A stretch of 64,000 nt of DNA from Candidatus Levybacteria bacterium RIFCSPHIGHO2_01_FULL_36_15b (lineage in GTDB: Bacteria > Patescibacteriota > Microgenomatia > Levybacterales > UBA12049): assembly GCA_001782045.1 (NCBI GenBank), contig MFNK01000012.1, positions 21,753 through 85,752 on the forward strand. The letters are read 5' to 3'. This document shows, piece after piece, positions 4,985-52,015 of this stretch. The translations under genes and the position numbers were made by a program. The notes under the pieces were generated by a model, which saw only the letters and a list, made by a program, of their open reading frames with translations, was not told the DNA's origin and made no database searches. Position 1 is the first letter of the stretch. Every line of letters begins with the position of its first letter.

Positions 4985-6037
4985 TTAGCCTGATTGAGGC
5001 TTTCTAATGTCTGAAAACCTTCTATCCCGTTTTCTGTTTATTCTCATTTCTTTTATTTTTTCGTTTCCTAATATAATTGGGACTGCAAGCGCTGCAGGAC
5101 CAGTCATAAGAGGAGAAAGCGGGGGAAGCGGTTTGGGTGGTTTTTCCTCTTTATCGAAGACAATCATTAATCGAAAACCCAAATCGTTTGTATCTTCGCT
5201 TACGTTTACAACTAATGCTTCATTTTCATCTGCTACCAAAACAAAGGGTGGTTTTTTATCTCCTATTCTTTGCTTATCCTTCCCAAAGTACGAACTGTCG
5301 GTCCATTCTAACTTGATGCCCTGATCCCAATTTTCTCTTTGGTTTAAAACATTCCATTCGATAAAATCGGGGAGTCTAATATGGGCATCCTTGGCAATTC
5401 CAAGTTCGGCCAACTTTCCTTTTCCCTTAGATTCTAATTCTTGATATATAAAATCCCATGAAACATCTCTCCTGGGTTTATATGGCGCAAAAAAATCTGC
5501 AAATGGCCTTACATCGTAAGGTTGGTCACCTTGTGGTACTTTTACATTTTCAACTGCTACCCACATACCGGGCAAAAATGGAAAATCGATATTTCTTGCT
5601 TTTACTTGCTCCCAATACCATTCTTCAGGTATATTTTTCCAATTGGGATAAACCTCCAAACGGTCATTCATAAAACCCTCAGCGCCTAATCGCTTTAGCC
5701 AGTTTAATCCAGCGAGATTTAAATTCGGAATATATCTTAAATCGAATCCTGCCTTTTCCAATGTTTTAAATGTTTCTTCATCTATCTGATGCGGCAAATC
5801 TTTAATGTCAAAAGCAGCTCCGCCTAAGACTTTTTTCCATTCGTTTTTTTCTCTTTTTATAATTTCTTGAGGGTTAAATTCGGGCTCTGGTTGCGGCTCT
5901 GGTTGCGGCTCTGGTCCAAGTAATTCTTTAGCTGCTTTTTCGTTTCCTTTTTCCCTAACTTTATATGGATCAAGTTCTGCGACTACGTCTGCTCTTGTGA
6001 TACCTTGCTCTAGTTCACTTGATTTTAGTTCGCTCAT
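4985..6037 (-). CDS. Hypothetical protein, RADEVADLDPY-motif family, large paralog A
   Basis: N-terminal GITRADVVAELDPYKVR. Has a PEPQ x3 repeat and the YPNWK and LPGMWVAVE blocks. Its stop overlaps the AAA+ gene upstream. Confidence 0.55.
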   Translation of the reverse strand: MSELKSSELEQGITRADVVAELDPYKVREKGNEKAAKELLGPEPQPEPQPEPEFNPQEIIKREKNEWKKVLGGAAFDIKDLPHQIDEETFKTLEKAGFDLRYIPNLNLAGLNWLKRLGAEGFMNDRLEVYPNWKNIPEEWYWEQVKARNIDFPFLPGMWVAVENVKVPQGDQPYDVRPFADFFAPYKPRRDVSWDFIYQELESKGKGKLAELGIAKDAHIRLPDFIEWNVLNQRENWDQGIKLEWTDSSYFGKDKQRIGDKKPPFVLVADENEALVVNVSEDTNDLGFRLMIVFDKEEKPPKPLPPLSPLMTGPAALAVPIILGNEKIKEMRINRKRDRRFSDIRKPQSG

Positions 6038-9932: not shown

Positions 9933-10284
9933 TATTTTTTATAGAATTTATCTTCTTTTCGTTAATGTAGTTGCTTTTAAACTCCTTACTTATATGCTCG
10001 TAATTTTTATCAATATGACTCTTCTTAAAAGATTCCATAATTTGTTTTTGGTCTTCTTCTATTTTATTTTTAAAAAAACTTGCATCAAAAGGTTTTGGGA
10101 TCGGTGCATCCCAAGTACCGGGCGGTAATGTATCTTCAGAACCATCTGCTGGAGCCGCAGCAGGTTCTTCGTCTCCATCCAGTAATTCTTCAGCCTGCTG
10201 CTGCACAGGAGGCTTTCTTACACCATAAGGGTCTAAGTCTGCAACTTCGTCTGCCCTCATTACTTCATCGCGTTCATCAGCCAT
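9916..10284 (-). CDS. Small hypothetical protein, RADEVADLDPY-motif family, member C
   Basis: N-terminal MADERDEVMRADEVADLDPYGVRKP. It overlaps the vWA start by 17 bp, so it is the first gene of the operon. Confidence 0.5.
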   Translation of the reverse strand: MADERDEVMRADEVADLDPYGVRKPPVQQQAEELLDGDEEPAAAPADGSEDTLPPGTWDAPIPKPFDASFFKNKIEEDQKQIMESFKKSHIDKNYEHISKEFKSNYINEKKINSIKNNENDW

Positions 10285-10344: not shown

Positions 10345-10749
10345 TTGATATATTCCCTGTCTATGGGAAATGAGATACAAAATTATAGATTAAGAGCGGA
10401 TGAGGTTGCTGATTTAGACCCGTATGAAAGAAGAAGCAAGAAAAAGACAGAAATAATAGAAGCTCCGGTAGAAGTAAAAGCTATACCAGAAAGTTCTGAA
10501 TTTAAAGAAAACTATATAATTCCGCCTGATTCCAAGAGCGCAGAGAATTCCCATTCAAAAATAATAAAAGGCTTAAGGTTTTTAGAATATTCAAGCGCAG
10601 CGGCTTTAATTTTAGACTTACAATTGTTTGCTTTGACACGCGGAGAAACACCATTTAGATCCGAACAAGCACTTGGAGGCTTATTATGTTTGGCAATTTT
10701 TATATTAACCAAAGCAGGAGCCGATAAATACGAAGACGATCTCAATTGA
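10345..10749 (+). CDS. Small hypothetical membrane-anchored protein, RADEVADLDPY-motif family, member D
   Basis: YRLRADEVADLDPYERR near the N-terminus; the true start may be the Met at 10363. It has a C-terminal hydrophobic helix. It is divergent from the operon. Confidence 0.5.
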   Translation: MIYSLSMGNEIQNYRLRADEVADLDPYERRSKKKTEIIEAPVEVKAIPESSEFKENYIIPPDSKSAENSHSKIIKGLRFLEYSSAAALILDLQLFALTRGETPFRSEQALGGLLCLAIFILTKAGADKYEDDLN

Positions 10750-14844: not shown

Positions 14845-16704
14845 TTAAGCCTTAACAGTAGCGTATGCTGCTTTTTTGGGGCCGATTAATTTTTCAAACT
14901 CTTCAGATTCAATCGTTTCCTTTTTTAGAAGCTCTTCTGCCAGAACATCCAGCTTGTTTCTTAATTTCTTGAGTACTTGATTTGCTTTTATATATGCTTC
15001 GTCTGTAATTTTTTTAACTTGCGAGTCGATTCTTGCAGCCATATCGGGCGAAATATTAGGGCTTTCGTAGGGCATCCTTTTGGCTTCCCCGTCTAAATTT
15101 ATTGGGCCAAGTTCGCTCATTCCATATTCAACAACCATTGTTCGGGCAACTTGAGTTGCTTTTGCAATATCATCAGATGCTCCTGTTGTTAATTCTTTAA
15201 ATACCAAGTTTTCAGCCGCTCTTCCTCCAAGCATTACCGCAATTTCTTCCATTAAATGAGTTTTTGTTTCATGAACTCTATCTATTGGCTCCATCATTGT
15301 GTGACCCAAACTCATTCCTCTTGATACTATAGAAATTCTATGAATCGGGTCCATGTTTGGCATAAACCATGAAACTAAAGCATGCCCGGCTTCGTGATAT
15401 GCTGTCATTTTTCTATCCATGTCTGATTGAAGTCTTTTCTTTTCAGGTCCTAATTTTACTTTGGTTGCTGCTTCTTCCAAATCCTGCATATCAATCTGTT
15501 TTTTAGCAAGTCTTGCTGCTAAAATTGCAGACTCGTTTAACATATTTTCCAAATCAGCTCCTGAGAATCCAACTGTTCTTCTTGCAATTCGACTCCAGTT
15601 AACATTTTTCTCGAAAGGTTTTCCCCGTGCATGGATTTTAAGAATTTCCTGCCTACCATTAACGTCCGGCAGTTCAAGCATTACGGTTCTATCAAATCTT
15701 CCGGGACGGACTAGTGCCGGGTCTAAAACATCGGGTCTGTTTGTTGCTGCCATAACAACTAGCTGCTCATTTGGCGTAAAACCGTCCATTTCAACTAGAA
15801 TTTGGTTAAGCGTCTGCTCTCGCTCGTCATGTCCGCCCATAAAACCTGCGCCGCGTTGTCTTCCAATAGCATCAATTTCATCTATAAAAATAATTGCGGG
15901 CTGTGCTTTTTTTGCGTTATTAAACAAATCCCGAACGCGAGAAGCTCCAACTCCAACTAGCATTTCCATAAATTCACTTCCCGCCATAGAGAAAAAAGCA
16001 ACTTCCGCCTCTCCCGCTGTTGCTCTTGCAAGGAGTGTCTTACCTGTTCCCGCAGGGCCAATCATCAACACGCCTTTTGGAGTTCTTGCTCCCATTGCCT
16101 TGTATTTGCCCGGATTTTTAAGAAAATCTACAACTTCTGTTAATTCCTGCTTTGCTTCATCTACTCCAGCCACATCTTTAAAACTGACTTTTGGAGTATC
16201 TTTGCTGTAAAGCTTTGCAGATGATTTTCCGAAAGAGAAAATGCTCTCCTGAGCTCCTCTTGCCTGCCTGAATATAAACCAGAAAAAAGCGACCATTAAA
16301 ATAATTGGAAGAATTCCTGTTAAAATGCTTATCCAATTATTAAGTGTCGTTTCATCTTTTACAGCCACTTTTGTTTTTCCTAAATCAACTCCTGCGTCTT
16401 TAAAAAGCTGATAAACGCTGGCGTTTGTTTCTTTAAAACTCTCTACTGTTTGATTTTTTTCTTTAGCAACTATTTTATTGGGATAAACCTCAATTGAGCT
16501 TACTTTTCCTCCCTTTACGTCAGAAATTATTGTTGAAAGGGGAACTGTTTTAGATTGCTCAGTTGTTCCACTTCCTGTTGGCTGGGTTATTCCAAAAAAT
16601 AAAAATGCAGTAAAAGCAATTAGAAAAACATAAATGATTATATTTTTCCATGACCATTTCATTTTAAAGTTTTTAAATTTTTTCGGTCTTTTTAGCCTTG
16701 CCAT
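14845..16704 (-). CDS. ftsH: ATP-dependent zinc metalloprotease FtsH
   Basis: Walker A GPAGTGKT, the SRH region, and zinc motif HEAGHAL. Length 619 aa. Confidence 0.9.
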
Positions 16705-20273: not shown

Positions 20274-20443
20274 TTATACTAAAAAGCTCACTTCCAAAGA
20301 AGCGAGCGATTTGTTGCGGGGCTAGGAGTTGCGCCTAGCCTGTGAGATTATGAGCCTCACGTGCACTGTACACTACCCCGCACGTGCGTAATATTATAAC
20401 AGAAATTTGCCTCAATTAGAAGATAATGTTAAAATATCTCAGC

Positions 20444-21190: not shown

Positions 21191-21565
21191 ATGGGTAAAA
21201 TTGAGGTTAGAGATAGATCAATTCGGGGAAGAATTAAAAGGGATAAGTTTGTGATGCCCCAAGGTTCACTTCGTAAACTTTCTGTTTCTAGAACAAATGT
21301 TTTTGAAGGAGATGTTGTTTTAGGCGAAGCAGATATATTCAATCGCTACGACGACGAAAATGTCAACGTGCGTGTCTGGAGAGGAGAACAAAATGTTTTC
21401 TCAGATGAACCAGCAAAAGAATATAGAAATAAAGTCGTTATTTCTGACAGTGAATTACAAAAGGGAGTAAGACTTCCCTCTCCTTTTGAGTATTTAGAAG
21501 TAAGGAATGCGCGCAAAGGCGCTTTTTCAAGACTCAGAAGAAAATTAAGCAGGAGGAGTCAATAA
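21191..21565 (+). CDS. Hypothetical protein, IEVRDRGI-family paralog 1
   Basis: The N-terminus MGKIEVRDRSIRGRI is shared with 21565..21909 and 24162..24473. Confidence 0.4.
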   Translation: MGKIEVRDRSIRGRIKRDKFVMPQGSLRKLSVSRTNVFEGDVVLGEADIFNRYDDENVNVRVWRGEQNVFSDEPAKEYRNKVVISDSELQKGVRLPSPFEYLEVRNARKGAFSRLRRKLSRRSQ

Positions 21566-21909
21566 TGGGAATCGAATTCAGAGACACTGGAATAATTGGA
21601 CGATTTATTCGAAGGCCGAGAGAAATTACTCAGGATAGTACTTTTTATTTAAAAAGGGCAAATAATCGTTACGATCTTGAAGACGATCAGACCATATTAA
21701 GCCGTAGGTCCACGTATTCATCTTATTCTCTACAGGAAGATGGATCAGTAATAGAAACCGACTATGCTAATGTTTTTCATCTTGTAGATTTACTGGAGTA
21801 TAGCCCTCGTCCATGCCAAGTAGTTGTCTTCCAAAGAACTCTTCCTAAAGAAGAGTTAGCAAGTGGTTATAAAATACCTCACTCTCATTGGAGAATTATC
21901 AAAACATAA
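21565..21909 (+). CDS. Hypothetical protein, IEVRDRGI-family paralog 2
   Basis: N-terminus MGIEFRDTGIIGRFI. ATGA overlap with the upstream gene. Confidence 0.4.
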   Translation: MGIEFRDTGIIGRFIRRPREITQDSTFYLKRANNRYDLEDDQTILSRRSTYSSYSLQEDGSVIETDYANVFHLVDLLEYSPRPCQVVVFQRTLPKEELASGYKIPHSHWRIIKT

Positions 21910-24161: not shown

Positions 24162-24473
24162 ATGACAATAGAAGTTAAAGACAGAGGAATAAAAGGTCTT
24201 TTTACAAAAACCAAATCTTATCAAGTAGGAGAACCCGTAAATATTCCATACAAGCAGATTCTCGATGATGACAGCCTAATTCACGGCAGAGATTTACTTA
24301 CTGAATTACCAAATGGAAGAATAAGCATTGAAAGTATGATTGATTTTCATCCTATTGAATTTATGACTGTTCTGCGTGGAGATGAAAGCTTAGAGGTTCC
24401 AGCAAGAGAGATTGGAAAGTATGATTTGGGATTTAGAGCAGGAAAAAAAGTAGTTTGGAAACCCTCTAAATAG
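24162..24473 (+). CDS. Hypothetical protein, IEVRDRGI-family paralog 3
   Basis: N-terminus MTIEVKDRGIKGLF. It is immediately downstream of the recombinase. Confidence 0.4.
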   Translation: MTIEVKDRGIKGLFTKTKSYQVGEPVNIPYKQILDDDSLIHGRDLLTELPNGRISIESMIDFHPIEFMTVLRGDESLEVPAREIGKYDLGFRAGKKVVWKPSK

Positions 24474-24545
24474 TGCTCCCGCTTGGATTCGAACCAAGGA
24501 CATCTACTTTATAAGAGTAGCGCTCTACCACTGAGCTACAGGAGC
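24474..24545 (-). tRNA. tRNA-Ile (anticodon read as UAU)
   Basis: Manual fold of the reverse complement: GCTCCTG-TA-GCTC-AGTGGTA-GAGC-G-CTACT-CTTATAA-AGTAG-ATGTC-CTTGG-TTCGAAT-CCAAG-CGGGAGC-A. Confidence 0.7.
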
Positions 24546-24560
24546 TTGTAACGTATTTTA

Positions 24561-26933
24561 TCAGAGGCGGGCGCGTTGGGCAATAATTGGCTCGAGTTTA
24601 TTAACCGGCACTCCGTATTTTACTCTAGATAATTCCCTAATTAACTCGGCAACTCTTTTGTTTTCCACTTGCTTTTCCTTGGTCATATCTCTTGTTAAAT
24701 CCATAGAAAATGAAGTTACAGGCTCGTTATTTACAATGGTTTTAACATAGGCGTTATAAACATCTACATTAATTAAATCTGCCTCTGTAAAAGTCGGCTG
24801 AAACTCGTGTTGTAGGTAGCTCGCATCCGTTACCCCTACTCTAAACGCTGCCAAAGTACCAACGTTTCCGAAAATTGCATTTTTAACCTCTTCATCCATT
24901 TGTCCTATAAACTGGTTTGCAACAATTAAATTGAGCCTGTATTTTCGGGCTTCTGACAAAATCTGTGCAAAATCAGGTGTTGCAAAGTTTTGAAACTCAT
25001 CTACATATAAATAAAAGTCTCGTCTTGATTCTTCTGGTATATCCTGCCTGCTCATTGCTGCAACCAAAATCTTAGGAACCAAAACTAAACCTAAGAAGCT
25101 AGCGTTTTCTTCTCCTATTTTTCCTTTGGATAAAGAGACGAGAAGAATTTTACCCTCATCCATTGCCTTTCTAAAATCAAATGCGCTCTTGCTTTGCCCA
25201 ATTATGTTTCTCATCATCTTATTTGTGACAAACCGGCCAAATTTGGAAACAATATAATCTAAGGTTTCTGATTTATGGAAATCGGAAGTCTGTGCAATTT
25301 GGTCTGTCCAATAACGTCTAATAATTGGATCCTGGACTTTAGGAAGCAGCTCCTGAACAAAATTTGAATCAGTAAGAGCACGTACAACTTCTATAAAAGT
25401 GCTTCCCGGCTCGCTCATTACGGTTAACATTGCGTTTCTTATAGCATGCTCAAAACGGGGGCCAATAATTCCGGTTTTATTGGGGTCGTAAAGCTTGTAC
25501 ATGAGCCCTACAATTGAGCTTACAATATAGTGTTTTTCCTGCTCGGTTTGGGCCTCTAACATGTTTAGTCCAAGAGGCATTTCCGTGTCTGATGGATCAA
25601 ATAAAATTACATCTTCTGCCCGCTCCGGCGGAATTAAAGGTAAAAGTTTATCTATTGTGTCGTGGGGATCGATAAAGCAAACCCCTTCCCCATTTCTTAT
25701 GTCCTGCAAAATCATGTCTTTAAGAAATTCGGATTTTCCCGTTCCAGTTTTTCCAATTACATACATATGTCTTCGTCTGTCATCTTTTTGAATATATACA
25801 GGTTTTGCCATACCCCTGTATGTACTCATTCCAAGATAAAGTCCTGTACTTGGAATTTGAACGGGTGCGGGCGCTTTTTTGGCATTAAGCCAGAAAATAT
25901 GAGGCGTTTGTATGGTTTTATTTGGAAAATGATAAACTCCGGCAAGCTCTTCGCTTGTTAAAACCGAAAAGTTTCCGGTTGCCGGGAAGTAGCGATAAAT
26001 AAAATCTGTTATAAAATTTCCTTTTAAAAACTGCTTCTGTTTTGTAAATTCATTAAATGACGCAAACTGATCGAATGCATTTTCCAAATTGTTAAGATGG
26101 GCCTCTGCTGCTTCCTTAGTAGAGGATGAAACAACCAATCTTACTACTGTATAAAAGCCGGGTTTTCCTATTTTTTGCTCAACAGCTTCAAGTTCTTTAG
26201 GGTCTGAAGAATACTTTGCAGTTTCCGGGTTTGATTCTCTTTTTTTAGTATCTGCGATGTGTTTTCTACCCATCTTAGACCATTTTGAATCTGCACCAGA
26301 AATTAAAATTTGAATTGCTGCGCCCTCTCCTTCCCCCATTTTGGCAAGGACAGAAGTTATTGAGGATATTGGATCAACTGCAAATTCTTTATAAACTTTT
26401 AAGGATTTGTAATTACTGTCTTTAAGTTTCAAGGTTTTGAATGCAACGCTACCATTTTCAGAAAATATATTATATTCATTGCCTAAAATGTAGCCTTCCT
26501 TTGAGTATCTCGAATTACCTTCTTCTACGACTCGTATTTCGGCATCCGGGTAAGAAGCGTTAATCTGCTTTTCAACCATGTCTTTATATTTATTAGGTGT
26601 GTATATGAAAAACCGAATGTCGCCAGGCATTCCTACTATTTCAAAAGATATATGAGGTCTGTATTTTAAAAACTGCAGGCGACCGCTTGATTTTATCCCT
26701 GCAAAAGCGCTAAAAAGCTGTTCTGCGGCGTCAATTTTTATTTCGTTGTCTCTTGGAAGCGCAATTTGCAAAAGAGTCGAGTCTAAGGAATGCTTTTCGC
26801 GTTCTCTATTTCTGTACCAAACCATCCAAACATATCCAAGCCCAACCACTACAGCAGCCATTAAGATAAGAATTCCTACTGTAACAAATAGCGATATTAG
26901 TAACTGAGTTAGAGCTGTTAAAGAATTTATCAT
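24561..26933 (-). CDS. VirB4/TrbE/CagE-family type IV secretion ATPase with N-terminal TM segment
   Basis: Walker A VIGKTGTGKSEFLKDM and Walker B LYVDEFQNFAT. 790 aa with an N-terminal hydrophobic helix. Confidence 0.8.
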   Translation of the reverse strand: MINSLTALTQLLISLFVTVGILILMAAVVVGLGYVWMVWYRNREREKHSLDSTLLQIALPRDNEIKIDAAEQLFSAFAGIKSSGRLQFLKYRPHISFEIVGMPGDIRFFIYTPNKYKDMVEKQINASYPDAEIRVVEEGNSRYSKEGYILGNEYNIFSENGSVAFKTLKLKDSNYKSLKVYKEFAVDPISSITSVLAKMGEGEGAAIQILISGADSKWSKMGRKHIADTKKRESNPETAKYSSDPKELEAVEQKIGKPGFYTVVRLVVSSSTKEAAEAHLNNLENAFDQFASFNEFTKQKQFLKGNFITDFIYRYFPATGNFSVLTSEELAGVYHFPNKTIQTPHIFWLNAKKAPAPVQIPSTGLYLGMSTYRGMAKPVYIQKDDRRRHMYVIGKTGTGKSEFLKDMILQDIRNGEGVCFIDPHDTIDKLLPLIPPERAEDVILFDPSDTEMPLGLNMLEAQTEQEKHYIVSSIVGLMYKLYDPNKTGIIGPRFEHAIRNAMLTVMSEPGSTFIEVVRALTDSNFVQELLPKVQDPIIRRYWTDQIAQTSDFHKSETLDYIVSKFGRFVTNKMMRNIIGQSKSAFDFRKAMDEGKILLVSLSKGKIGEENASFLGLVLVPKILVAAMSRQDIPEESRRDFYLYVDEFQNFATPDFAQILSEARKYRLNLIVANQFIGQMDEEVKNAIFGNVGTLAAFRVGVTDASYLQHEFQPTFTEADLINVDVYNAYVKTIVNNEPVTSFSMDLTRDMTKEKQVENKRVAELIRELSRVKYGVPVNKLEPIIAQRARL

Positions 26934-27673: not shown

Positions 27674-28834
27674 TTAGTTTAGTTTTGAATAAGGTGCAGA
27701 TTTTCCACACTCAGGGCAACTTATTCTTCCTCCTCCTATTGCTGCTTCAACCTGCCTTTGGCAAAAAGGGCATTTACAACAAAGTGTGGTTTGTTCGGTT
27801 TTTTTCTGACCGAATTGGGCCACGCTATAAGGATTATTTATATTCTCGGCACTTGCCAAATTGAACCCTGCGGAAACACCTGGACAAGGACCCCCTGCTA
27901 CTCTGGGTGTGAACATTCCCATCGTGGCGGCCTTTCTCTCTACTTGCTCGTCTGGAGCAAAGGCAGCCCAATATTCTAGTTTTTTAATAAATTCGTTATC
28001 GTTATTAACGATAGCAGATAGGGTTTCGTCTGTTTGGTTTAAGACAGAGTTAAACTTTAGACGGTGGGTAAAGAAGTCATACGGATTTTTAATCAAAGAG
28101 TTTATGTAGCTCACCGTCAAACGTGCATTAATTTTGTTAATGAGCTCAAGTTTTTCTTCATCTAGAGCTACTGCGTCTTTATTTAAGTATTTTTGGACAT
28201 CATCTGAGGACTCGAAAACATCTACGTTTATGGGCTCTTTTAGAAAATCGGATGCCCTTTCGTAACTTTGGCAGTTAGTAAATGGTTTGAGTTTTTCTTT
28301 ATACTGCTCTAAAGTTAGGGTAGATAAATACCTGTTTAACTCTACGTATCTTTTCCCATTCTCATCCTCTTTCAGCTCATAAACGTCGAAAAAATTGTTT
28401 GTATAGTCGGAGCCTTTTTCTCCCCTTGACGAAACCGAGAGCCTTTTTGCCCCCACTTTAGAATCTTTGACAGTTAGCTCGGCTTGAGTTTTTACTGCCC
28501 CCAAAAGCTCTGCATCTTCGCGATCGAAATCCAACGGGTTACCATATTTTCTTCTGTATTCAACTCCTTTTCTTACCATGTCCTCCATTGATTGATTTAC
28601 CCCGTCAGCCACCATTTTCTCCTCAACGATCTCAAAGCGGGTTGTCGACCTTATAGCACTTACCCTTTCTCCTATGTATGTTTCTAGCTGTCTTCTGGTA
28701 TAAGTTTTTAACCTTTGTTGCTCGGAGAATGTAAGTTGATGAAAGCTTCTGTAGTCTCTTTCGTCAAAAGAAGGATTGTATACAAGCTTTCTTTCCTCCT
28801 CAAAATTCGGTGTGTAAGTTTGTCTTTCTATCAT
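27674..28834 (-). CDS. Hypothetical protein with C-terminal Cys-rich zinc-ribbon
   Basis: 386 aa ending CCKCPFCQ...CPECG. Confidence 0.45.
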   Translation of the reverse strand: MIERQTYTPNFEEERKLVYNPSFDERDYRSFHQLTFSEQQRLKTYTRRQLETYIGERVSAIRSTTRFEIVEEKMVADGVNQSMEDMVRKGVEYRRKYGNPLDFDREDAELLGAVKTQAELTVKDSKVGAKRLSVSSRGEKGSDYTNNFFDVYELKEDENGKRYVELNRYLSTLTLEQYKEKLKPFTNCQSYERASDFLKEPINVDVFESSDDVQKYLNKDAVALDEEKLELINKINARLTVSYINSLIKNPYDFFTHRLKFNSVLNQTDETLSAIVNNDNEFIKKLEYWAAFAPDEQVERKAATMGMFTPRVAGGPCPGVSAGFNLASAENINNPYSVAQFGQKKTEQTTLCCKCPFCQRQVEAAIGGGRISCPECGKSAPYSKLN

Positions 28835-28900: not shown

Positions 28901-29449
28901 CTAAGATCTGGTGGACCAAATTACTTCTTTCTTTTTATCTTTTTTGTTAATAAATCGGGCATACACAAATAAAACGTCAGAAAGTCTATTGAGATAAATC
29001 AGTGTTTGAGGATTAACTTTTTCTTTTTCAGAAAGCTCTACAGTTTTTCTTTCAGCTCTTCTTGCAAGGGTACGGGCGTAATGTAGGTGGGATCCCGAGA
29101 CCGATCCTCCGGGAAGAATAAAGTTTTCTAGTTCTGGCAATTTTTTTGAGAGGTTATCGATTTGATATTCGAACTCTTCTGTTCTTTTAAACAAATATTT
29201 TCCCATTTCTTTAAATTTGCCAGTCGATGGGTTAGCAAGAAACGCTCCTATTTCAAAAAGATCATTCTGGATTCTTATTAGTTCTTTTTTAATTTCTTGA
29301 GGAAGTTTGTAGGAAAGCACAATGCCTAAATAACTATTGAGCTCGTCTAAGGTGCCGTATGTATTGACCCTAAGACTTGCTTTAGAAACGGTTTTACCTC
29401 CGTACAGAGATGTTTTTCCTTTGTCTCCAAATTTTGTATAAATTGACAT
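28901..29449 (-). CDS. PduO-type ATP:cob(I)alamin adenosyltransferase (start taken at MSIYTKFGDKG)
   Basis: MSIYTKFGDKGKTSLYGGKTVSKASLRVNTYGTLDELNS is the canonical PduO/MMAB N-terminus. The 41-codon upstream extension of the ORF is probably not translated. Confidence 0.7.
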   Translation of the reverse strand: MSIYTKFGDKGKTSLYGGKTVSKASLRVNTYGTLDELNSYLGIVLSYKLPQEIKKELIRIQNDLFEIGAFLANPSTGKFKEMGKYLFKRTEEFEYQIDNLSKKLPELENFILPGGSVSGSHLHYARTLARRAERKTVELSEKEKVNPQTLIYLNRLSDVLFVYARFINKKDKKKEVIWSTRS

Positions 29450-29473
29450 AATTTCCAAATAAAAAAGTCCTCT
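29443..29473 (-). terminator. Intrinsic-terminator-like hairpin (AGTCCTCT-ACG-AGAGGACT) followed by a T-run, immediately 5' of the adenosyltransferase ATG
   Basis: Read directly from the sequence. On the minus strand it reads ...GCAGTCCTCTCGTAGAGGACTTTTTTATTTGGAAATTATG. Confidence 0.5.
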
Positions 29474-29649
29474 ACGAGAGGACTGCGGCTGCCCTGCTCG
29501 GAGCTTAAATTTTGTATCGTTTTCTGGATATACAGTACCGGCAGTTCCGCCGACTTTCACGGCGATTTCCAATACAAAGTTTTAAATTTTATTTAATTAG
29601 GACATTCGGCTGAGCTCAGTCGAAGCCAAAGTTGGACAAGTCATATTTA

Positions 29650-32094
29650 TTAACACTCTGAATAGCCACAGGCATAACATTTTTTACAACCTTCTTCATA
29701 TGCCAGAGATGCTGCACCGCAATCAGGACAAATATCATAAAGTCCGGTTGAAGCTGCAGACGTTGAAAGCTCATTTGATGGAGTAGGAGCAAGAGTAAGC
29801 TGCTCCAGTTTTACTACATCATCTTTTACTTCTACTATAATATCCGCAGCTTTTGGAAGGTGTGAATTTGCTTTCCCGTTTAGAGCCCCATTTCCGTTTG
29901 AATGCCCATTAGAAAGCCCATTTGTAATAATTTTTTTATCCTCTACAATTCCGTTAACTCTAAATTCGAAATGCCTGGATAGTATTTTTGCAACCGCATC
30001 AGGAAGAGAGCGCACCCTATTTTCTCCGAAACCAACACTTCTTGCTCCCCCAATTCCTATTAATTGCGCAACAACTTGTCTAATTCGCTCGCGTGGCGCC
30101 AGCATTCCATTTAGCCTTAAGTTTAACGAGATCATTCTTCCCAATGCGTCTGCCATTGCTGCAACATCACTTCCTGATTTTCCTACCGTTATAAATACTT
30201 CGAAAGGCTCTTTACTTGTATCGTGGTTAATTGTTATGTAAGTTTTGCCAACAGGTGTCTCTGTTCCGTATGTTACTCCCTCAACCACCATTGGTCTTGG
30301 AATAACCGGAACTTGGGGTATTTGAACTATTTCTTCTTTTTTATCCTCTTTCTTGTCTTCTTTTCGCGATAGAACGCCCTCACGAGAACCATCTCTCATA
30401 TATGTTATTCCCTTTAATCCTGCATCATATGCCATACTATAGAGCCTTTTTACATCTTCGACGGTATGTGAATTGGGAGCATTAACAGTTTTTGATATTG
30501 AAGAATCTATATAATCTTGCGCTACAGCTTGAACTTTAACATGATCCTCGGGAGATAAATCGTTTGCAGACACAAAATAATCGGGTTTTTCCGCTTTTGG
30601 ATTTTCTTTTTTCCACTCTTCAAATAGAGGATGGTACATCATGTGTTCGCCAAGCCTATCTCGTCTTATAAACTCAAACTCATAAACCGGCTCGACTCCG
30701 GAGGAAACTCCAGAAATAAGCGATGTAGTTCCTGTTGGCGCAATAGTTAAGAGCACCGCATTTCTAATTCCCTGTTTTGCAATTTTCTTTTTTATATCTT
30801 CGGGTAGTTTTTGTATGTGAAATCCTTTTTGATATTTTTCTTTGTTATACTTTGGGAAACTTCCTTTCTCTAATGCTATGTCCGAGGAAGCAATATAAGC
30901 GTTATCTCTTAATGTTTTAAATATTTTCTCTATTACCGGCAGACTTTCTTCAGAACCATATCGTACTTTCATTTTTATCAAAGCGTCTGCAAGTCCAAGA
31001 ATTCCCAAACCGGTTCTTCTTATGTTTTTTGCAACCTTCTCATTTTCTTTATAAAAGTAATATGTTTCATCTATAACATTGTCCAAAAATCTCATTGCGA
31101 CTCTTACGTCTTTTCCAAAATTATCATAGTCAAATTCTCCTCTTTTGTTTACGTAAGCAGATAGATTCATCGCACCTAAATTACAAACTGCCCAGGGAGA
31201 AAGTGGCTGCTCGCCGCACGGATTAGTTGCTGAAAGTCTCTCAAAATACCAAGTATTACTCCTTTTGTTTGACCTATCCAAGAAGTGAAGCCCCGGCTCT
31301 GCGCTTTTCCATGCTGCCGTGCAAATCAAATCCCATAGATACCTTGCTTTTATGGTTTTATAAACCTTTAATTTCCCCCCCAATTTCTTCCATTCTTCGA
31401 TATCGCCCTTCCATTTTTTATCGTATTTTTTATCATCCAAATCAGGAAAAACTAAATCCCAATTCCCATCTTTTTTAACTGCCTCCATAAATGCGTCAGA
31501 CACGCAAACAGAAAGATTAGCGCCATTTATTTTATTTAAATCTTCTTTTACTGTTATAAACTCTTCTATGTCCGGATGCCAATCATGAAGCATTAACATC
31601 AAGGCGCCTCTTCTGCTTCCACCCTGCTGTACAATGTCTTTTGTTGCCAGGGAGTAAAGCTCTGCCCAGTTCATTGGACCCGAAGAGAATCCATTTACTT
31701 TTTTAACTCTTGCTCCTCTTGGCCGAAGCGAAGATAGATTAACTCCAACTCCTCCTGCTCTTGCCATAATTTCAATCATCTGGGTTAGATTTTCCATTAT
31801 TCCGCCCCTTGAGTCTGGGGGATTGGGAATAACAAAACAGTTAAAATAACTTACTTCAAAGCCGGTGCCTGCGCCTGATAATATTCTTCCGCCCGGTAAA
31901 AACTTGAAGTCGTACATTGCGTCATAAAATTTTTTCTCCCATTTTTTTCGGTCTTTTGGTTTTTCAACGCTGGCAATTGCCTTAGCTACTCTTTTCCACA
32001 TTTCATCGGGAGTTTTTTCCAGAGCGTTACCCGCTTGGTCTTTTAATGAATATCTATCTAAAAATACTTTTTGTCTTACACCGTCTAATTTCAT
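29650..32094 (-). CDS. nrdJ: Class II (adenosylcobalamin-dependent) ribonucleotide reductase
   Basis: 814 aa. The N-terminus ...VFLDRYSLKD... is NrdJ-like, and the C-terminal Cys cluster CPDCG...CKKCYACG is typical of monomeric class II RNR. Confidence 0.75.
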   Translation of the reverse strand: MKLDGVRQKVFLDRYSLKDQAGNALEKTPDEMWKRVAKAIASVEKPKDRKKWEKKFYDAMYDFKFLPGGRILSGAGTGFEVSYFNCFVIPNPPDSRGGIMENLTQMIEIMARAGGVGVNLSSLRPRGARVKKVNGFSSGPMNWAELYSLATKDIVQQGGSRRGALMLMLHDWHPDIEEFITVKEDLNKINGANLSVCVSDAFMEAVKKDGNWDLVFPDLDDKKYDKKWKGDIEEWKKLGGKLKVYKTIKARYLWDLICTAAWKSAEPGLHFLDRSNKRSNTWYFERLSATNPCGEQPLSPWAVCNLGAMNLSAYVNKRGEFDYDNFGKDVRVAMRFLDNVIDETYYFYKENEKVAKNIRRTGLGILGLADALIKMKVRYGSEESLPVIEKIFKTLRDNAYIASSDIALEKGSFPKYNKEKYQKGFHIQKLPEDIKKKIAKQGIRNAVLLTIAPTGTTSLISGVSSGVEPVYEFEFIRRDRLGEHMMYHPLFEEWKKENPKAEKPDYFVSANDLSPEDHVKVQAVAQDYIDSSISKTVNAPNSHTVEDVKRLYSMAYDAGLKGITYMRDGSREGVLSRKEDKKEDKKEEIVQIPQVPVIPRPMVVEGVTYGTETPVGKTYITINHDTSKEPFEVFITVGKSGSDVAAMADALGRMISLNLRLNGMLAPRERIRQVVAQLIGIGGARSVGFGENRVRSLPDAVAKILSRHFEFRVNGIVEDKKIITNGLSNGHSNGNGALNGKANSHLPKAADIIVEVKDDVVKLEQLTLAPTPSNELSTSAASTGLYDICPDCGAASLAYEEGCKKCYACGYSEC

Positions 32095-47215: not shown

Positions 47216-47647
47216 ATGAAAATTACAAACAGAAAAGCGTTTTTTGAATACGAAATCCTGGAAACCTTTGAAGCAGGGATTAATTTATATGGTCATGAAG
47301 TTAAATCAGCACGCTTAGGCAAGGCAGATTTGGCTGGGTCGTTTGTAAGAATTTTGGGAAGTGAAATATATCTTGTTAATGCAAAGATTTGGGAGTATCA
47401 ACCCGGACAAATAGAGGGATACGATGAGGGAAGAACAAGAAAACTCCTTTTGCACAAAAAACAGATTATTTCGCTTAAATCAAAAACAGAGGGTTCAAAC
47501 TTATCTTTGGTTCCAATTTCGATGTATTTAAAAAACGGGTTTATTAAAGTGGAGGTAGGACTAGGCCGTGGTAAGAAAAAGTACGAAAAAAGACAGGCTA
47601 TAAAAAAGAGAGATTTACAAAGAGATTTAGAAAGGGAGTTAGGTTAG
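47216..47647 (+). CDS. smpB: SsrA-binding protein
   Basis: N-terminus NRKAFFEYEILETFEAGI...GHEVKS and C-terminal K/R-rich tail. Confidence 0.9.
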   Translation: MKITNRKAFFEYEILETFEAGINLYGHEVKSARLGKADLAGSFVRILGSEIYLVNAKIWEYQPGQIEGYDEGRTRKLLLHKKQIISLKSKTEGSNLSLVPISMYLKNGFIKVEVGLGRGKKKYEKRQAIKKRDLQRDLERELG

Positions 47648-47926: not shown

Positions 47927-47977
47927 ATCTTTAAAACGTATTTTTACTAATTTTTATACAAATTAGTAAAATTTATA

Positions 47978-48003
47978 ATAAAAAACCCCGCGGTTAAGCA
48001 GGG
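47978..48003 (-). terminator. Hairpin CCCTGC-TTAACC-GCGGGG followed by a T-run, just 3' of the tmRNA
   Basis: Read on the minus strand immediately after the tmRNA 3' end. Confidence 0.4.
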
Positions 48004-48010
48004 TTTATTT

Positions 48011-48373
48011 GTGGAGATGTCGGGAAGTGATCCCGAGTCCAAGAAAGTGATTTTAAAAACTTCTACAAGCTTATTTTGTTATTTTTTTGATCGCCTTACT
48101 CTTTGAAAACAAACATCCATAAGTAAGGTCAAGGTTATAAATTCAAAAGAGCTCTAACCAGTTTCTCTTTAGATTTCTCGACTAAGTTTATGCCCAAAAT
48201 GTCTCATCGAGAAAAGACATTAAGGACAGCTCAACTAGTTAAGCAAAAGCAAAACGAGGCTGAGCGAATGAAGAGTTTCCTCTATCATTTATAGTTTTGA
48301 CCTGTTTTACGACTTAGATCATTGTCGGCTTGCAGTTTTTAAAGAACTATCCTGTCGATGCATTTGCATCCCC
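48011..48373 (-). ncRNA. ssrA: tmRNA (transfer-messenger RNA)
   Basis: No ORF in any frame. The minus-strand 5' end GGGGATGCAAATGCATCGACAGG resembles the canonical tmRNA 5' end (GGGGAcG...GATTCGACAGG). The 3' end GGAC-TCGGG-ATCACTT-CCCGA-CATCTCC-A is a tRNA-like T-arm plus acceptor that pairs with the 5' GGGGATG. An internal tag-like reading frame reads ...NDRGNSSFAQPRFAFA-TAA. The gene lies next to smpB. Confidence 0.7.
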
Positions 48374-48412
48374 AGTACCGGCATTCTAGCACTTCGAGGC
48401 AAAAAAGTCAAC

Positions 48413-49146: not shown

Positions 49147-49704
49147 ATGGTCAAGATTTTTATATTCCGCCACGGAGAAACCTACGATAATAAACACCAC
49201 GACTTTTCAGGATGGAGAAATGTAGATTTGGATGAAGCTGGAATCATTGAAGCACAAAAAATAAGAGATGCGCTGCAAAACGAACACGTGTCAAAAGCTT
49301 ATCAATCAGACTTACTACGCTCCCAAAGAACTCTTGAAATTGTTTTAGAAGATCATGAAAGTGTTGATGTGATAACAGACTCACGGATTAAAGAAAGAGA
49401 CTACGGAGATTTAACCTCTATGTCAAAAGACGCTCTTAAACAAAAAGACCCCGAAGATTTTGAGCTTTGGCACAGAAGCTATGAAGTCGCACCTCCAAAT
49501 GGAGAAAGCATTAAAGACGTAGAAAAAAGAGTTTTGGAGTTTCTTAATGATGAAATTCCTAAGTGGAAAGCGGGTGATGTAATTTTTATATCAGCTCATG
49601 CAAATTCAATAAGACCCCTAAGAAGATATTTTGAAAAGATTTCAATTGAAGAGATGTGCAGTTACGAAAATATCCCCGGCAAAATCTACGAATACCAAAT
49701 TTAG
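49147..49704 (+). CDS. Histidine phosphatase superfamily (phosphoglycerate-mutase-like) protein
   Basis: RHGETYDN catalytic motif and a downstream SAHANSIR. Confidence 0.75.
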   Translation: MVKIFIFRHGETYDNKHHDFSGWRNVDLDEAGIIEAQKIRDALQNEHVSKAYQSDLLRSQRTLEIVLEDHESVDVITDSRIKERDYGDLTSMSKDALKQKDPEDFELWHRSYEVAPPNGESIKDVEKRVLEFLNDEIPKWKAGDVIFISAHANSIRPLRRYFEKISIEEMCSYENIPGKIYEYQI

Positions 49705-49792
49705 CGGAGAAGGTGAGATTCGAACTCACGCGAGCTTATTCAGCTCAAGGGTTTAGCAAACCCTCGCAATGGACCATGCTATGCGACTTCTC
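49705..49792 (-). tRNA. tRNA-Ser (anticodon GCU)
   Basis: Manual fold of the reverse complement: GGAGAAG...AGGGT-TTGCTAA-ACCCT, long variable arm, GTGAG-TTCGAAT-CTCAC, CTTCTCC-G. Confidence 0.8.
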
Positions 49793-49833
49793 CTTGAAAG
49801 TATTATAATTCAGTAGGAAGCTAAAATCCAGTT

Positions 49834-50547
49834 ATGGAAAATCACCCGGAACCCAAATATCATATTCAAAGCCACGAATCAAAACTTAATTGGTTAAGAG
49901 CTGCCGTTTTAGGCGCAAATGACGGTATTGTCTCAATTGCAGGCTTAGTTGTTGGAGTAGCAGGCGCAACTCAATCATCTGTGGTAATTTTAACCGCCGG
50001 AATTGCAGGAATTATTGCAGGTGCAATATCAATGGCAGCCGGTGAATATGTTTCCGTATCAAGCTCAAAAGACACAGAAAAGGCTTTGCTTGTTAAAGAA
50101 CGCTTTGAACTTGAACATTATCCAAAAGAGGAAATGGAAGAATTAAAAAATATTTATAAACACAAAGGGCTGTCGGAAAATACCGCAGCACAAGTTGCAA
50201 AAGAGCTGACAGAAAAAGATCCGATGGCTGCACACTTTGATGCCGAACTTAGAATTGATCCTGACAATTTGATAAACCCATGGCATGCTGCAATAGCCTC
50301 TGCTGCTTCTTTTTTCCTGGGCTCTATGATTCCGCTTTTTGCAATCGCCTTACCTCCGCAGGAATTAAGAGTTCAAGTTGCATTTGTTTCTGTAATATTT
50401 GCTCTATTTTTAACAGGGACTTTAAGTGCAAAAATTGGAGGGGCAAGTATAACAAGAGCAGTTTTAAGAGTGGTAACAGGTGGAATTTTGGCTATGGCCG
50501 TAACTTATGCAATAGGAAGAGCCTTCGGTGTATCTGGAATTATTTAG
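49834..50547 (+). CDS. VIT1/CCC1-family (DUF125) membrane transporter
   Basis: LRAAVLGANDGIVSIAGLVVGVAGA...GEYVSVSS is typical of the VIT family. Confidence 0.7.
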   Translation: MENHPEPKYHIQSHESKLNWLRAAVLGANDGIVSIAGLVVGVAGATQSSVVILTAGIAGIIAGAISMAAGEYVSVSSSKDTEKALLVKERFELEHYPKEEMEELKNIYKHKGLSENTAAQVAKELTEKDPMAAHFDAELRIDPDNLINPWHAAIASAASFFLGSMIPLFAIALPPQELRVQVAFVSVIFALFLTGTLSAKIGGASITRAVLRVVTGGILAMAVTYAIGRAFGVSGII

Positions 50548-50600
50548 TACTTCCCGCTTATCTTTGGAAATACTCATTTTTGAGTTATAATATCAACCAA

Positions 50601-50688
50601 GGAGAGGTCGCATAGTTGGTCTAGTGCGTTCGCTTGGAAAGCGGATATTGTCGTAAGGCAATCGCGGGTTCGAATCCCGCCCTCTCCG
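50601..50688 (+). tRNA. tRNA-Ser (anticodon GGA)
   Basis: GGAGAGG-TC...anticodon loop TTGGAAA, long variable arm, GCGGG-TTCGAAT-CCCGC, CCTCTCC-G. Confidence 0.8.
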
Positions 50689-50689
50689 C

Positions 50690-51121
50690 ATGAGATATGA
50701 GTTTTCCGCAGGTGGCGTAGTCTACAAAAAAGTCCGTTCGACAAGCTCAGGATTTAAATATCTTATTCTTATTGGGCAACACTCTGGCCACAAAGGATGG
50801 GTTTTTCCAAAAGGCCTTATAGGAGACCACAAAAAGAAAGAGGGAAAAGAAGATACTGCAATAAGGGAAGTTAAAGAAGAAACAGGAGTTGAAGCAAATA
50901 TAGAAAAAGCATTAACGCCTATTACCTATTGGTACGTTTGGGAAGAGGAAAAAAGAAGGAAAACAGTTTACTATTTTATAATGAAGGCAACGGGCGGAAA
51001 AATAGAAAATCATGACTGGGAAATGAGCGATGTTAAATGGGTAAACGTTGAAAAAGTCGAAGACACACTAACTTATCCCTCCGATAAAAAAGTCTGGGAA
51101 GAAGCCCGAAAACTGCTATAA
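50690..51121 (+). CDS. NUDIX hydrolase
   Basis: Nudix box GDHKKKEGKEDTAIREVKEETGV. Confidence 0.8.
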   Translation: MRYEFSAGGVVYKKVRSTSSGFKYLILIGQHSGHKGWVFPKGLIGDHKKKEGKEDTAIREVKEETGVEANIEKALTPITYWYVWEEEKRRKTVYYFIMKATGGKIENHDWEMSDVKWVNVEKVEDTLTYPSDKKVWEEARKLL

Positions 51122-51130
51122 TAAGCACGA

Positions 51131-51214
51131 GGAAGGTTGGCCGAGCGGTTCATGGCGCTGGTTTTGAAAACCAGTGAGCGAAAGCTCTCAGAGGTTCGAA
51201 TCCTCTACCTTCCG
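51131..51214 (+). tRNA. tRNA-Ser (anticodon UGA)
   Basis: GGAAGGT...CTGGT-TTTGAAA-ACCAG, long variable arm, AGAGG-TTCGAAT-CCTCT, ACCTTCC-G. Confidence 0.8.
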
Positions 51215-51257
51215 CAGGTTTCTTGACTTATTCTTCAATCTCTCTTAAAGTTAAGTT

Positions 51258-51776
51258 ATGCCCGAACACCATAAAACTCATAACGTTAACGATGTAAAAA
51301 CACTTTTCGAATGGAAATCCCCCGGTCGGCCATTTAAGAAAAGGGGGAAACAATATTATCTAACTGCACTTTTAATTATGCTTTTTGTAGAGGTAATTCT
51401 TTTTCTTTTTTCCCAGTATCTTTTAATGGTGGTAGTTGTAGCTTTGGTTTTTGTCGCTTTTGCGCTTGCTTATGTTCCCCCAAAAAATTTCTATTATAAA
51501 ATTTCATCAGAGGGAGTAATGGTAGAAGATAGATTTTTCTTATGGAAAGAGCTTTATGATTTTTATTTTAGAGAAAGTGAAAATCTGGAAACTTTGCATA
51601 TAAGAACCGAGTCTTTTATTCCCGGAGAGCTGATTTTAACTTTTCATGAAAGCGACAAAGATAAAATTAAGCAAGCACTTCTTCCATATCTTGAATTTAG
51701 GGAATATATTAAACCGACCTTTGTAGACAAAGCAGCAAACTGGTTAACTAAAAACTTCCCTCTTGAGAATAAGTAA
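51258..51776 (+). CDS. Hypothetical membrane protein (2 TM)
   Basis: 172-aa ORF with the hydrophobic pair LTALLIMLFVEVILFLF / LLMVVVVALVFVAFALAYV. Confidence 0.4.
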   Translation: MPEHHKTHNVNDVKTLFEWKSPGRPFKKRGKQYYLTALLIMLFVEVILFLFSQYLLMVVVVALVFVAFALAYVPPKNFYYKISSEGVMVEDRFFLWKELYDFYFRESENLETLHIRTESFIPGELILTFHESDKDKIKQALLPYLEFREYIKPTFVDKAANWLTKNFPLENK

Positions 51777-51809
51777 ATTTGGCCTCAATTTGCTATAATT
51801 ACTCAGCGA

Positions 51810-51882
51810 GTGCCCGTAGTTCAATGGATAGAACGCCCGGTTGCGGACCAGGTGGTTGGAGGTTCGATTCCTCTCGGGCACG
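51810..51882 (+). tRNA. tRNA-Arg (anticodon read as GCG; tentative)
   Basis: GTGCCCG-TA-GTTC-AATGGATA-GAAC-G-CCCGG-TTGCGGA-CCAGG-TGGTT-GGAGG-TTCGATT-CCTCT-CGGGCAC-G. One mismatch in the anticodon stem. Confidence 0.6.
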
Positions 51883-51886
51883 CAAA

Positions 51887-51971
51887 GGAGGGTTCGCATA
51901 GCGGCCAATTGCACGAGTTTCGAAAACTCGAGGGAGCAATCCCTGCGCAGGTTCAAATCCTGCACCCTCCG
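51887..51971 (+). tRNA. tRNA-Ser (anticodon CGA), CCA encoded
   Basis: GGAGGGT...CGAGT-TTCGAAA-ACTCG, long variable arm, GCAGG-TTCAAAT-CCTGC, ACCCTCC-G-CCA. Confidence 0.8.
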
Positions 51972-52015
51972 CCACAATTCTTGACTTCTTAGAAATTTAA
52001 GGTATTATTCTTTCA

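Follow-up and report, generated by a model that had tools for sequence, protein, structure and literature searches.

The T-loop and the D-loop form the most conserved part of transfer-messenger RNA (tmRNA). In a 64,000-nt stretch of contig MFNK01000012.1 from Candidatus Levybacteria bacterium RIFCSPHIGHO2_01_FULL_36_15b, called the window below, a preliminary description placed a tmRNA gene (ssrA) on the minus strand beside smpB, with an atypical T-loop, a partly encoded CCA end and a tag ending in FAFA. The locus raises the question of whether such a gene can be a working ssrA, and whether its T-loop is the peculiarity of one gene or of a lineage. We found that 48011..48373 (minus strand) is a genuine ssrA gene and that its T-loop change is truly atypical and clade-wide. 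The best explanation overall, which we hold with good confidence, is a functional ssrA of an ultra-small, Levybacteria-lineage bacterium of the candidate phyla radiation (CPR)/Patescibacteria, with a lineage-wide remodelled tRNA-like elbow.

A full-length tmRNA gene

The Rfam model RF00023 matched 48009..48373 (minus strand) over all of its positions (1-374 of 374) with 124.7 bits, well above the curated gathering score of 47 and far outside chance expectation (E 2.6e-48), and ARAGORN called a tmRNA at 48011..48373 (minus strand) with the tag DRGNSSFAQPRFAFA*. The identification given in the preliminary description is borne out by this covariance-model search and by ARAGORN, and the 5' end, the 3' end and the tag open reading frame (ORF) are each present in the sequence where it had located them. 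The 5' end, GGGGATGCAAATGCATCGACAGG, begins at 48373 on the minus strand, and the 3' end, GGAC-TCGGG-ATCACTT-CCCGA-CATCTCC-A-CAA, runs to about 48011 on the same strand. Accordingly numbered, G1 is 48373, the discriminator A362 is 48012 and C363 is 48011; the discriminator is followed by CAA, and the remainder of CCA is not encoded. The parts of the gene are as follows.

48011..48373, minus strand: tmRNA (ssrA), one-piece standard form, 363 nt (ARAGORN and Rfam RF00023)
48367..48373, minus strand: 5' strand of the acceptor stem, GGGGAUG (nt 1-7), pairing with CAUCUCC (nt 355-361; 48013..48019)
48359..48366, minus strand: D-loop analogue CAAAUGCA (nt 8-15), with a single G where other tmRNAs have GG, read from the sequence
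nt 16-20 and 334-337, minus strand: UCGAC...GGAC junction, read from the sequence
48298..48328, minus strand: pseudoknot PK1 (CGAC/GUCG and UGAUCU/AGGUCA; nt 46-76), directly 5' of the resume codon, with compensatory changes in 22 relatives
48239..48286, minus strand: tag reading frame, 15 codons, DRGNSSFAQPRFAFA (nt 88-135; ARAGORN coding part)
48176..48228, minus strand: pseudoknot PK2 (UGUCC/GGGCA and UCUCGA/UCGAGA; nt 146-198), from the alignment of 22 relatives
48133..48170, minus strand: pseudoknot PK3 (AAAGAG/CUCUUU and GGUUA/UAACC; nt 204-241), from the sequence and the 22-relative alignment
48075..48128, minus strand: pseudoknot PK4 (CCUUACU/AGUAAGG and UUUGUU/AACAAA; nt 246-299), from the alignment of 22 relatives
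48020..48036, minus strand: T-arm UCGGG-AUCACUU-CCCGA (nt 338-354), predicted as a 6-bp stem, UCGGGA/UCCCGA, closing the pentaloop UCACU (48026..48030)

The acceptor stem formed by the 5' and 3' ends is of the tRNA-Ala type, with a G3:U70 pair and an A discriminator. All seven of its pairs are kept in 22 of 22 relatives, and the pair 3:359, which corresponds to the alanine identity pair G3:U70, is G:U in every one of them. All four pseudoknots that the preliminary description had proposed to check could be drawn, with all eight stems located and supported by compensatory changes across the 22 closest relatives. In stem 2 of PK2, each position is paired in 19-22 of the 22 relatives by 3-4 pair types; most positions of PK4 are paired in 21-22 of 22, again with compensatory changes, and those of its stem 2 in 18-21 of 22 with 3-4 pair types each. 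Because all pseudoknot stems are upheld by compensatory change and G3:U70 is invariant, the gene looks maintained and functional rather than a relic, and ssrA is apparently working.

Compared with the standard one-piece tmRNA (SsrA, RF00023; for example the 363-nt tmRNA of E. coli), the window gene has the same length class, a 7-bp acceptor stem with G3:U70, an A discriminator and the UCGAC...GGAC junction. It also shares the order from PK1 through the resume codon, tag ORF and stop to PK2-PK4 and the T-arm, and the SmpB partner. It differs in its single-G D-loop (GG in the standard form), in its T-loop AUCACUU (UUCRANU in the standard form), which lacks U54 and A58, and in a predicted sixth T-stem pair with a 5-nt loop. 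Further differences are the resume codon GAU (Asp) instead of GCN, the unencoded CCA and the tag end FAFA instead of LAA. Judged from its sequence, the gene thus has every functional definer of a tmRNA that can be tested in this way and lacks two hallmarks that are nearly universal, namely a canonical T-loop and a D-loop with GG.

The D-loop and the T-loop change together across a clade

The partner gene of ssrA lies next to it in the window.

47216..47647, plus strand: smpB, 143 aa, convergent with ssrA (Pfam SmpB, E 3.8e-50; SmpB homologues in PDB, E 9e-36)

The two genes are 363 nt apart. The window SmpB is 90% identical to its top match, from the Levybacteria metagenome-assembled genome (MAG) MFNL01000001, and its best relatives belong to MAGs of Candidatus Levybacteria or Patescibacteria. 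In 14 of the 15 loci of these SmpB relatives, Rfam finds a tmRNA adjoining smpB. ARAGORN misses 10 of these 14, which pointed to a clade-wide deviation in the tRNA-like domain.

We therefore describe at least 100 distinct complete tmRNAs that share the acceptor stem GGGGAUG/CAUCUCC, drawn from the genome loci and from the metagenome matches listed; the metagenome scan was aimed at the conserved 3' region and left the T-arm unconstrained. In the listed set, the D-loop and the T-loop are associated with only 2 exceptions among 100: a canonical UUCRANU T-loop is present in 48 of the 49 genes with a GG D-loop (L153 included), and a non-canonical one in 50 of the 51 genes with a single-G D-loop. 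The window gene belongs to the latter group, none of whose 51 members has GG. Its T-loop, AUCACUU, carries A54 and C58 in place of U54 and A58, and its T-arm is identical in the closest relative (L001) and in a metagenome contig (L133).

The two groups were compared position by position (n = 48 for the GG group, L153 excluded; n = 51 for the single-G group). Position 54 is U in 100% of the GG group, whereas the single-G group has U 21, C 11, G 11 and A 8. Positions 55 and 56 are largely kept (U in 100% versus 88%, and C in 100% versus 98%), and position 57, a purine in the GG group (G 44, A 4), is A in 94% of the single-G group. Position 58 is A in 100% of the GG group but C 26, U 14, A 10 and G 1 in the single-G group (C or U in 40/51), and position 60 is U in 100% of the former and G 18, C 14, A 13 and U 6 in the latter. 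Even the pair 53:61, which is G-C in 100% of the GG group, varies in the single-G group (G-C 44, A-U 6, U-A 1). The atypical T-loop pointed out in the preliminary description is therefore real, and it extends beyond a single gene to a lineage-wide co-change of D-loop and T-arm.

The tRNAs of the window keep GG D-loops and UUCRA T-loops, indicating that the change is specific to tmRNA. A canonical elbow is also seen in Saccharibacteria, in Magasanikbacteria and in the ordinary bacteria of the SmpB-anchored sample. The tmRNAs of Saccharibacteria (L018, L056) and Magasanikbacteria (L021) resemble that of the window in superphylum, genome style and the position of ssrA beside smpB; unlike it, they have a GG D-loop and a UUCGAU or UUCAAC T-loop and are found by ARAGORN. 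The remodelled elbow is thus no general CPR trait.

Some individual sequences and features of the same region deserve mention. In L085, a metagenome sequence with the D-loop UAUAUAU and the T-loop UGAAAAG, the D-loop G and C56 are both lost and become U and A; this single case fits a retained G:C56 contact and its possible replacement by U:A. Two other metagenome sequences (L141, L101) have GGCAG-type T-loops, reminiscent of the GG of the Reclinomonas mitochondrial tmRNA. In the metagenome sequence L153, unrelated sequence stands where the 5' half of the T-arm would be expected; an intron in the T-loop may account for this. At the 5' end of the window ssrA, a palindrome, GAUGC-AAAU-GCAUC (48357..48370, minus strand; tmRNA nt 4-17), folds alone at -7.5 kcal/mol (z = -4.1), a fold that would be an alternative to the acceptor stem; the palindrome is kept in the D-loop subclade CAUUGCA, CAAUUGCA and CAUCGCA. 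Across the clade, the first D-loop base is usually the same as the base after the lone G (C..C, A..A, U..U). Finally, seven loci (L002, L006, L009, L011-L013 and L015) are titled 'uncultured Gammaproteobacteria bacterium' and yet have a Levybacteria-like smpB (57-76% identity) and a single-G tmRNA, so that, on sequence grounds, the taxonomic labels of these third-party assemblies look wrong.

The 3' end, detection by ARAGORN and the possibility of decay

The preliminary description had counted the partly encoded CCA among the unusual traits of the gene. The observation is correct, but it is no peculiarity of this gene: seven of the eight tRNA genes in the window lack an encoded CCA, and all 15 genome-derived related tmRNAs end in CAUCUCC-A-CA. 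The 2025 tmRNA database paper also states that CCA is "not always" encoded (PMC11915505).

The elbow has a practical consequence for annotation. ARAGORN, on which widely used annotation pipelines rely, finds 11 of the 51 single-G variants in the listed set, as against 42 of the 49 canonical genes, so ssrA will often go unreported in such genomes. Such low recovery fits the low-yield taxa of the database authors, who counted 111 taxa with poor yield from ARAGORN and BLAST (PMC11915505).

These deviations could in principle be read as signs of decay: an unusual T-loop, no CCA and Asp at the resume codon would then mark a decaying or non-functional tmRNA. Several conserved positions have indeed changed (U54, A58, one G of the D-loop and, from GCU to GAU, the resume codon), and most relatives are missed by ARAGORN. 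However, the family model is matched over its full length, the acceptor stem with G3:U70 is perfect, and compensatory changes uphold the four pseudoknots even though relatives diverge by as much as about 35%. In addition, the tag frame is unbroken and shared by relatives, the gene is flanked by promoter-like and terminator-like sites, smpB is intact and ordinary, the same features are conserved in 51 distinct sequences, and CCA is absent genome-wide. We consider decay extremely improbable.

A predicted sixth pair in the T stem

In the window tmRNA, positions 54 and 60 of the T-loop (A343 and U349) can pair and leave the loop UCACU. Among the 40 distinct T-arms of the single-G group, 54:60 is a standard pair in 29 (G-C 9, U-G 9, U-A 5, A-U 3, C-G 3), where shuffling gave a mean of 16.5 (p = 5e-5; mutual information 0.87 bit), and A.C or C.A in a further 8. 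The signal vanishes once the partner column is slid. Where 54 is G, 60 is C in 10 of 11 cases, and the two positions pair in all but one of the 22 closest relatives of the window gene. In the same shuffle on the 40 distinct T-arms, neither 54:58 nor any of four other loop pairs was significant. A pair between 54 and 58 was rejected as a candidate (16/40 standard pairs, p = 0.14). A two-pair D-loop/T-loop mini-helix, in which the U before the lone G would pair with A57, was likewise dropped because the base before G does not covary with A57: judged by eye, A57 is kept where C or A precedes the G.

Since the shuffle tests on 54:60 ignore relatedness, 25 non-overlapping, phylogenetically independent nearest-neighbour pairs were compared. 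Both 54 and 60 had changed in 10 of these 25 contrasts, 7 times from one standard pair to another, as between L133 (A-U) and L163 (U-G), which differ by 14% overall. In 6 contrasts only one side had changed, and 4 of these were wobble interconversions that preserve the pair. Furthermore, the RNAalifold consensus has a 6-bp T stem with a 5-nt loop, and the single-sequence minimum free energy structure is likewise a 6-bp stem with a pentaloop (-11.5 kcal/mol). The single-G tmRNAs are thus predicted to have a 6-bp T stem capped by a U-C-A-Y-N pentaloop. With the canonical T-loop lost and 54:60 covarying, we file the window gene as a variant rather than a typical tmRNA.

From the covariation we infer that the outer G:C56 stacking platform would be kept and the internal T-loop core, that is, the 54:58 pair and the intercalation of G18, replaced. 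We lean towards the view, as the somewhat better bet, that the whole lineage of Levybacteria and close relatives runs trans-translation with an elbow that lacks the U54:A58 pair and the G18 equivalent, has a 6-bp T stem with a UCAYN pentaloop instead and keeps only the outer G:C56 contact.

Several observations weigh against this view. The D-loop/T-loop interaction has been reported as needed for SmpB binding and function (review PMC3968760, citing Barends 2002), and yet SmpB has no obvious compensating change: in an alignment of 81 SmpB sequences, the clade differs at 4 positions that are at least 80% conserved elsewhere (68, 95, 101 and 124), none of them an obvious RNA-contact switch. Moreover, the sample covers, among the matches listed, only tmRNAs that combine the acceptor stem GGGGAUG/CAUCUCC with the GCUUGUAGA motif. 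A standard 54:60 pair is missing from 11 of the 40 distinct T-arms (8 of these being the A.C or C.A cases), and 10 of the 51 members keep A58, six of them together with U54, which may retain a T-loop-like fold; the clade is therefore heterogeneous.

The last two observations would also favour a different structure for the clade, in which the tmRNA is functional but its loop keeps a 7-nt T-loop-like fold with a non-canonical 54-58 contact, and the correlation of 54 with 60 has another cause, for instance contacts with proteins or the ribosome, or common descent. Conservation of U55, C56 and A57 is what a true T-loop would show, and the blindness of the shuffle tests to relatedness leaves room for ancestry. 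Against such a fold stand the weak pairing of 54 with 58 given above and the fact that C or U at 58 cannot form the reverse-Hoogsteen pair with most residues found at 54. The five Watson-Crick or wobble pair types at 54:60, the coupling of G54 to C60 and the both-side changes in the independent contrasts are likewise at odds with it, and the variation of the normally invariant G53-C61 suggests that the constraints of the T-loop motif have been lost. We regard the T-loop-like fold as unlikely and retain the six-pair T stem as the preferred structure.

The predicted elbow in trans-translation and among known tmRNAs

The established tmRNA pathway, taken from a review (PMC3968760), can be laid over the features of the locus. 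ssrA would be transcribed from its own promoter and end at its own terminator. RNase P would trim the 5' end, and the 3' end would be trimmed and then completed by the CCA-adding enzyme, which would be needed because only the A-C of ACCA is encoded. Alanyl-tRNA synthetase (AlaRS) would charge the RNA with alanine by means of G3:U70 and the A discriminator, and the charged tmRNA, bound to the SmpB encoded next door, would enter the empty A site of stalled ribosomes with EF-Tu. Translation would resume on GAU and add (A)DRGNSSFAQPRFAFA before the UAA stop, and the tagged protein would then be degraded. In the elbow of this molecule, the D-loop would keep its single G as the partner of C56; the T-loop, without U54 and A58, would form a sixth pair from 54 and 60 (A-U in the window), so that the T-arm becomes a 6-bp stem capped by the pentaloop U55-C56-A57-Y58-N59.

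If this is true, an elbow not built on a T-loop is acceptable to SmpB, EF-Tu, RNase P, the CCA-adding enzyme and the ribosome alike, and the D-loop/T-loop interactions reported as required in E. coli tmRNA are no universal requirement. tRNA-like elbows could then be rebuilt in an RNA that is predicted still to pass RNase P, AlaRS, EF-Tu and the ribosome. A natural clade with a replaced core and all else kept would offer a comparative test of which elbow contacts trans-translation needs.

Deviations in the tmRNA T-arm have been recorded before. Burks et al. 2005 noted a possible sixth T-stem pair in the tmRNA of Dehalococcoides ethenogenes (PMC1168896); as compared by description only, this is a remark on a single sequence without covariation, and no accompanying loss of GG in the D-loop or of U54/A58 was described. 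The same paper reports GG for U341-U342 in the mitochondrial tmRNA of Reclinomonas americana and a change of U342 to G in Caulobacter crescentus (PMC1168896). Like the clade described here, these two cases show that the tmRNA T-loop is not absolutely invariant; they are substitutions at 54/55 in two-piece or organellar tmRNAs, whereas the clade has a covarying 54:60 in a one-piece tmRNA. The 2025 tmRNA database lists 5,275 Patescibacteria tmRNAs, and the sequences themselves are therefore probably already public, but the variant elbow is not discussed in that paper (PMC11915505). Nothing in the literature that could be searched on the tmRNA T-loop, CPR and Patescibacteria described the variant, and there it appears to be undescribed as a structural variant.

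The tag peptide and its candidate protease

The tag ORF reads GAU AGA GGA AAC UCU UCA UUC GCU CAG CCU CGU UUU GCU UUU GCU UAA, with the resume codon GAU at 48284..48286 (nt 88-90) and the stop UAA at 48239..48241 (nt 133-135). It follows PK1, its resume codon is preceded by AACUAUAAAU, an A-rich context of the AUAAAU type, and it is closed by a terminal stop. As the preliminary description had it, the frame ends in ...GNSSFAQPRFAFA followed by UAA-C-UAG; the UAG is out of frame. A homologous tag frame is present in relatives, for example ARGNSSFAFVPAYA in L002. The resume codon GAU (Asp) occurs only in the window and in L001, and close relatives have GCU or GCA there.

The FAFA terminus, singled out earlier as an oddity, is indeed present but proved typical of the clade. 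Tags were located with a scored heuristic, so that starts are approximate for some sequences and C-termini depend only on the frame chosen. Among the 51 clade tmRNAs, the C-termini include YAFA 5, FAFA 4, YAYA 4, AFAA 4, ALAA 4 and LAYA 3, and tag lengths run from about 8 to 40 residues with these heuristic starts; ALAA 17 and PLAA 11 are found in the GG comparison group.

Similar tags are known from Mollicutes. These bacteria lack ClpXP, and the ssrA tag of Mesoplasma florum ends in NYAFA and is read by Lon (mf-Lon) (PMC9382460; see also PMC8403727); the tag of Mycoplasma (M. pneumoniae) has 27 aa (PMC8403727). The window tag, ...PRFAFA, shares with that of M. florum the aromatic-Ala-aromatic-Ala C-terminus (FAFA, YAFA or YAYA; [N]-Y/F-A-F-A in the Mollicutes type) and its occurrence in a small-genome bacterium. 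It does not share the unusual length: the window tag has 15 codons, and that of M. florum is described as longer than the tag of E. coli. Because Levybacteria and Mollicutes are unrelated, any similarity of their tags would be convergent. By analogy, the aromatic-Ala-aromatic-Ala C-terminus most likely serves as a degron, and we infer that it may be read by an AAA+ protease other than ClpXP, for example Lon. A further candidate is FtsH, whose gene is present in the window.

14845..16704: ftsH

Searches with the E. coli ClpP, ClpX and Lon proteins (tblastn) gave no match either in the window or in the 377 kb of contigs covered for the clade. This is only a small fraction of what any one genome holds, so neither presence nor absence of lon, clpX or clpP can be claimed; the sole clade match in the protease searches was the AAA domain of FtsH, and the literature searched on Patescibacteria proteases offered nothing helpful. 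The FAFA-type tag could instead be a variant of the ALAA degron for ClpXP (or ClpAP), without any switch of protease. The clade tags grade without a break from ALAA and AFAA (4 each) into YAFA, FAFA and YAYA, and every tag ends in Ala, like the tags recognised by ClpX. On the other hand, the characterised tags that come closest, [N]YAFA, are read by Lon in bacteria without ClpXP (PMC9382460), although this comparison is one of analogy only. We rate the ClpXP variant as a serious possibility but not the expected one. Were the tag read by a protease such as Lon, this would be a predicted second lineage of small-genome bacteria whose degrons have the aromatic-Ala-aromatic-Ala form, pointing to convergence in the specificity of tag and protease.

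The neighbourhood of ssrA

Three further features lie around ssrA.

48383..48411, minus strand: sigma-70-type promoter-like site, TTGACT-17 nt-TAGAAT with TG before the -10 (consensus match only, 10/12)
47983..48006, minus strand: intrinsic-terminator-like hairpin and U tract, 9 pairs (5 G-C), then TTTATTATAA
47639..47926, minus strand: hydrophobic ORF, 95 aa, between smpB and ssrA (context only, outside the tmRNA system as far as known)

The -10 hexamer of the promoter-like site, a consensus match with a predicted start, ends 9 nt 5' of the mature 5' G, and the terminator-like hairpin begins 5 nt 3' of the tmRNA end. A ComF-like phosphoribosyltransferase gene lies upstream of ssrA. An ORF-free gap does exist here as the preliminary description had noted, measuring 486 bp (47927..48412) rather than the 480 bp given, but its border on the smpB side is the 95-aa ORF and not smpB itself. 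This ORF is kept in the closest relative, L001 (61% identity over 92 aa), and gave no match in a Pfam scan. Integration of a genomic island replacing the 3' end of ssrA was considered and rejected, since no second copy of the 3' 22 nt is present in the window (at most 3 mismatches) and hence there is no sign of such integration.

ssrA and smpB are convergent in the window, in L001 and in L006, and about 360 nt apart in the window and L001, with the conserved membrane-like ORF between them. In the other relatives among L001-L015, ssrA lies 3' of smpB on the same strand after a gap of about 45-150 nt (mostly about 55-75). This difference in arrangement points to a local inversion in this sub-lineage.

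Other features of the window

An N-terminal motif, (I)TRADEVADLDPY, recurs in four ORFs (4009-4971, 4985-6037, 9916-10284 and 10345-10749), none of which has a Pfam match. These ORFs lie on either side of a gene pair that encodes an AAA_5 ATPase domain (6034-7881) and a VWA domain (7881-9932). Three small paralogous ORFs on the plus strand (21191..21909 and 24162..24473) start with M-x-IEV/F-RD-x-G-I-x-GR; the one that was scanned, 21191-21565, has no Pfam match. These ORFs lie near a gene for a TrwB/TraG-like coupling protein (24561-26933).

An AdoCbl-II riboswitch (29509..29588, minus strand; 42.1 bits) directly follows a gene for a ribonucleotide reductase that has a TSCPD domain (29650-32094) and lies upstream of the ORFs 28901-29572 and 27674-28834. 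The latter, the only one of the two that was scanned, has no Pfam match; the former overlaps the riboswitch, which makes its called start doubtful.

Among the tRNA genes, ARAGORN reports a 70-nt tRNA-Met (CAU) at 20313..20382 (minus strand) with a non-canonical T-loop, CGCAACU, and a D-loop without GG, to which the Rfam tRNA model gives no score even at E <= 1; this could be a second non-canonical tRNA-like elbow in the genome or a false positive. A tRNA-Ile with the anticodon UAU is located at 24473..24545 (minus strand), and four tRNA-Ser genes (GCU, GGA, UGA, CGA) and a tRNA-Arg(GCG) are clustered within 2.3 kb (49704..51974).

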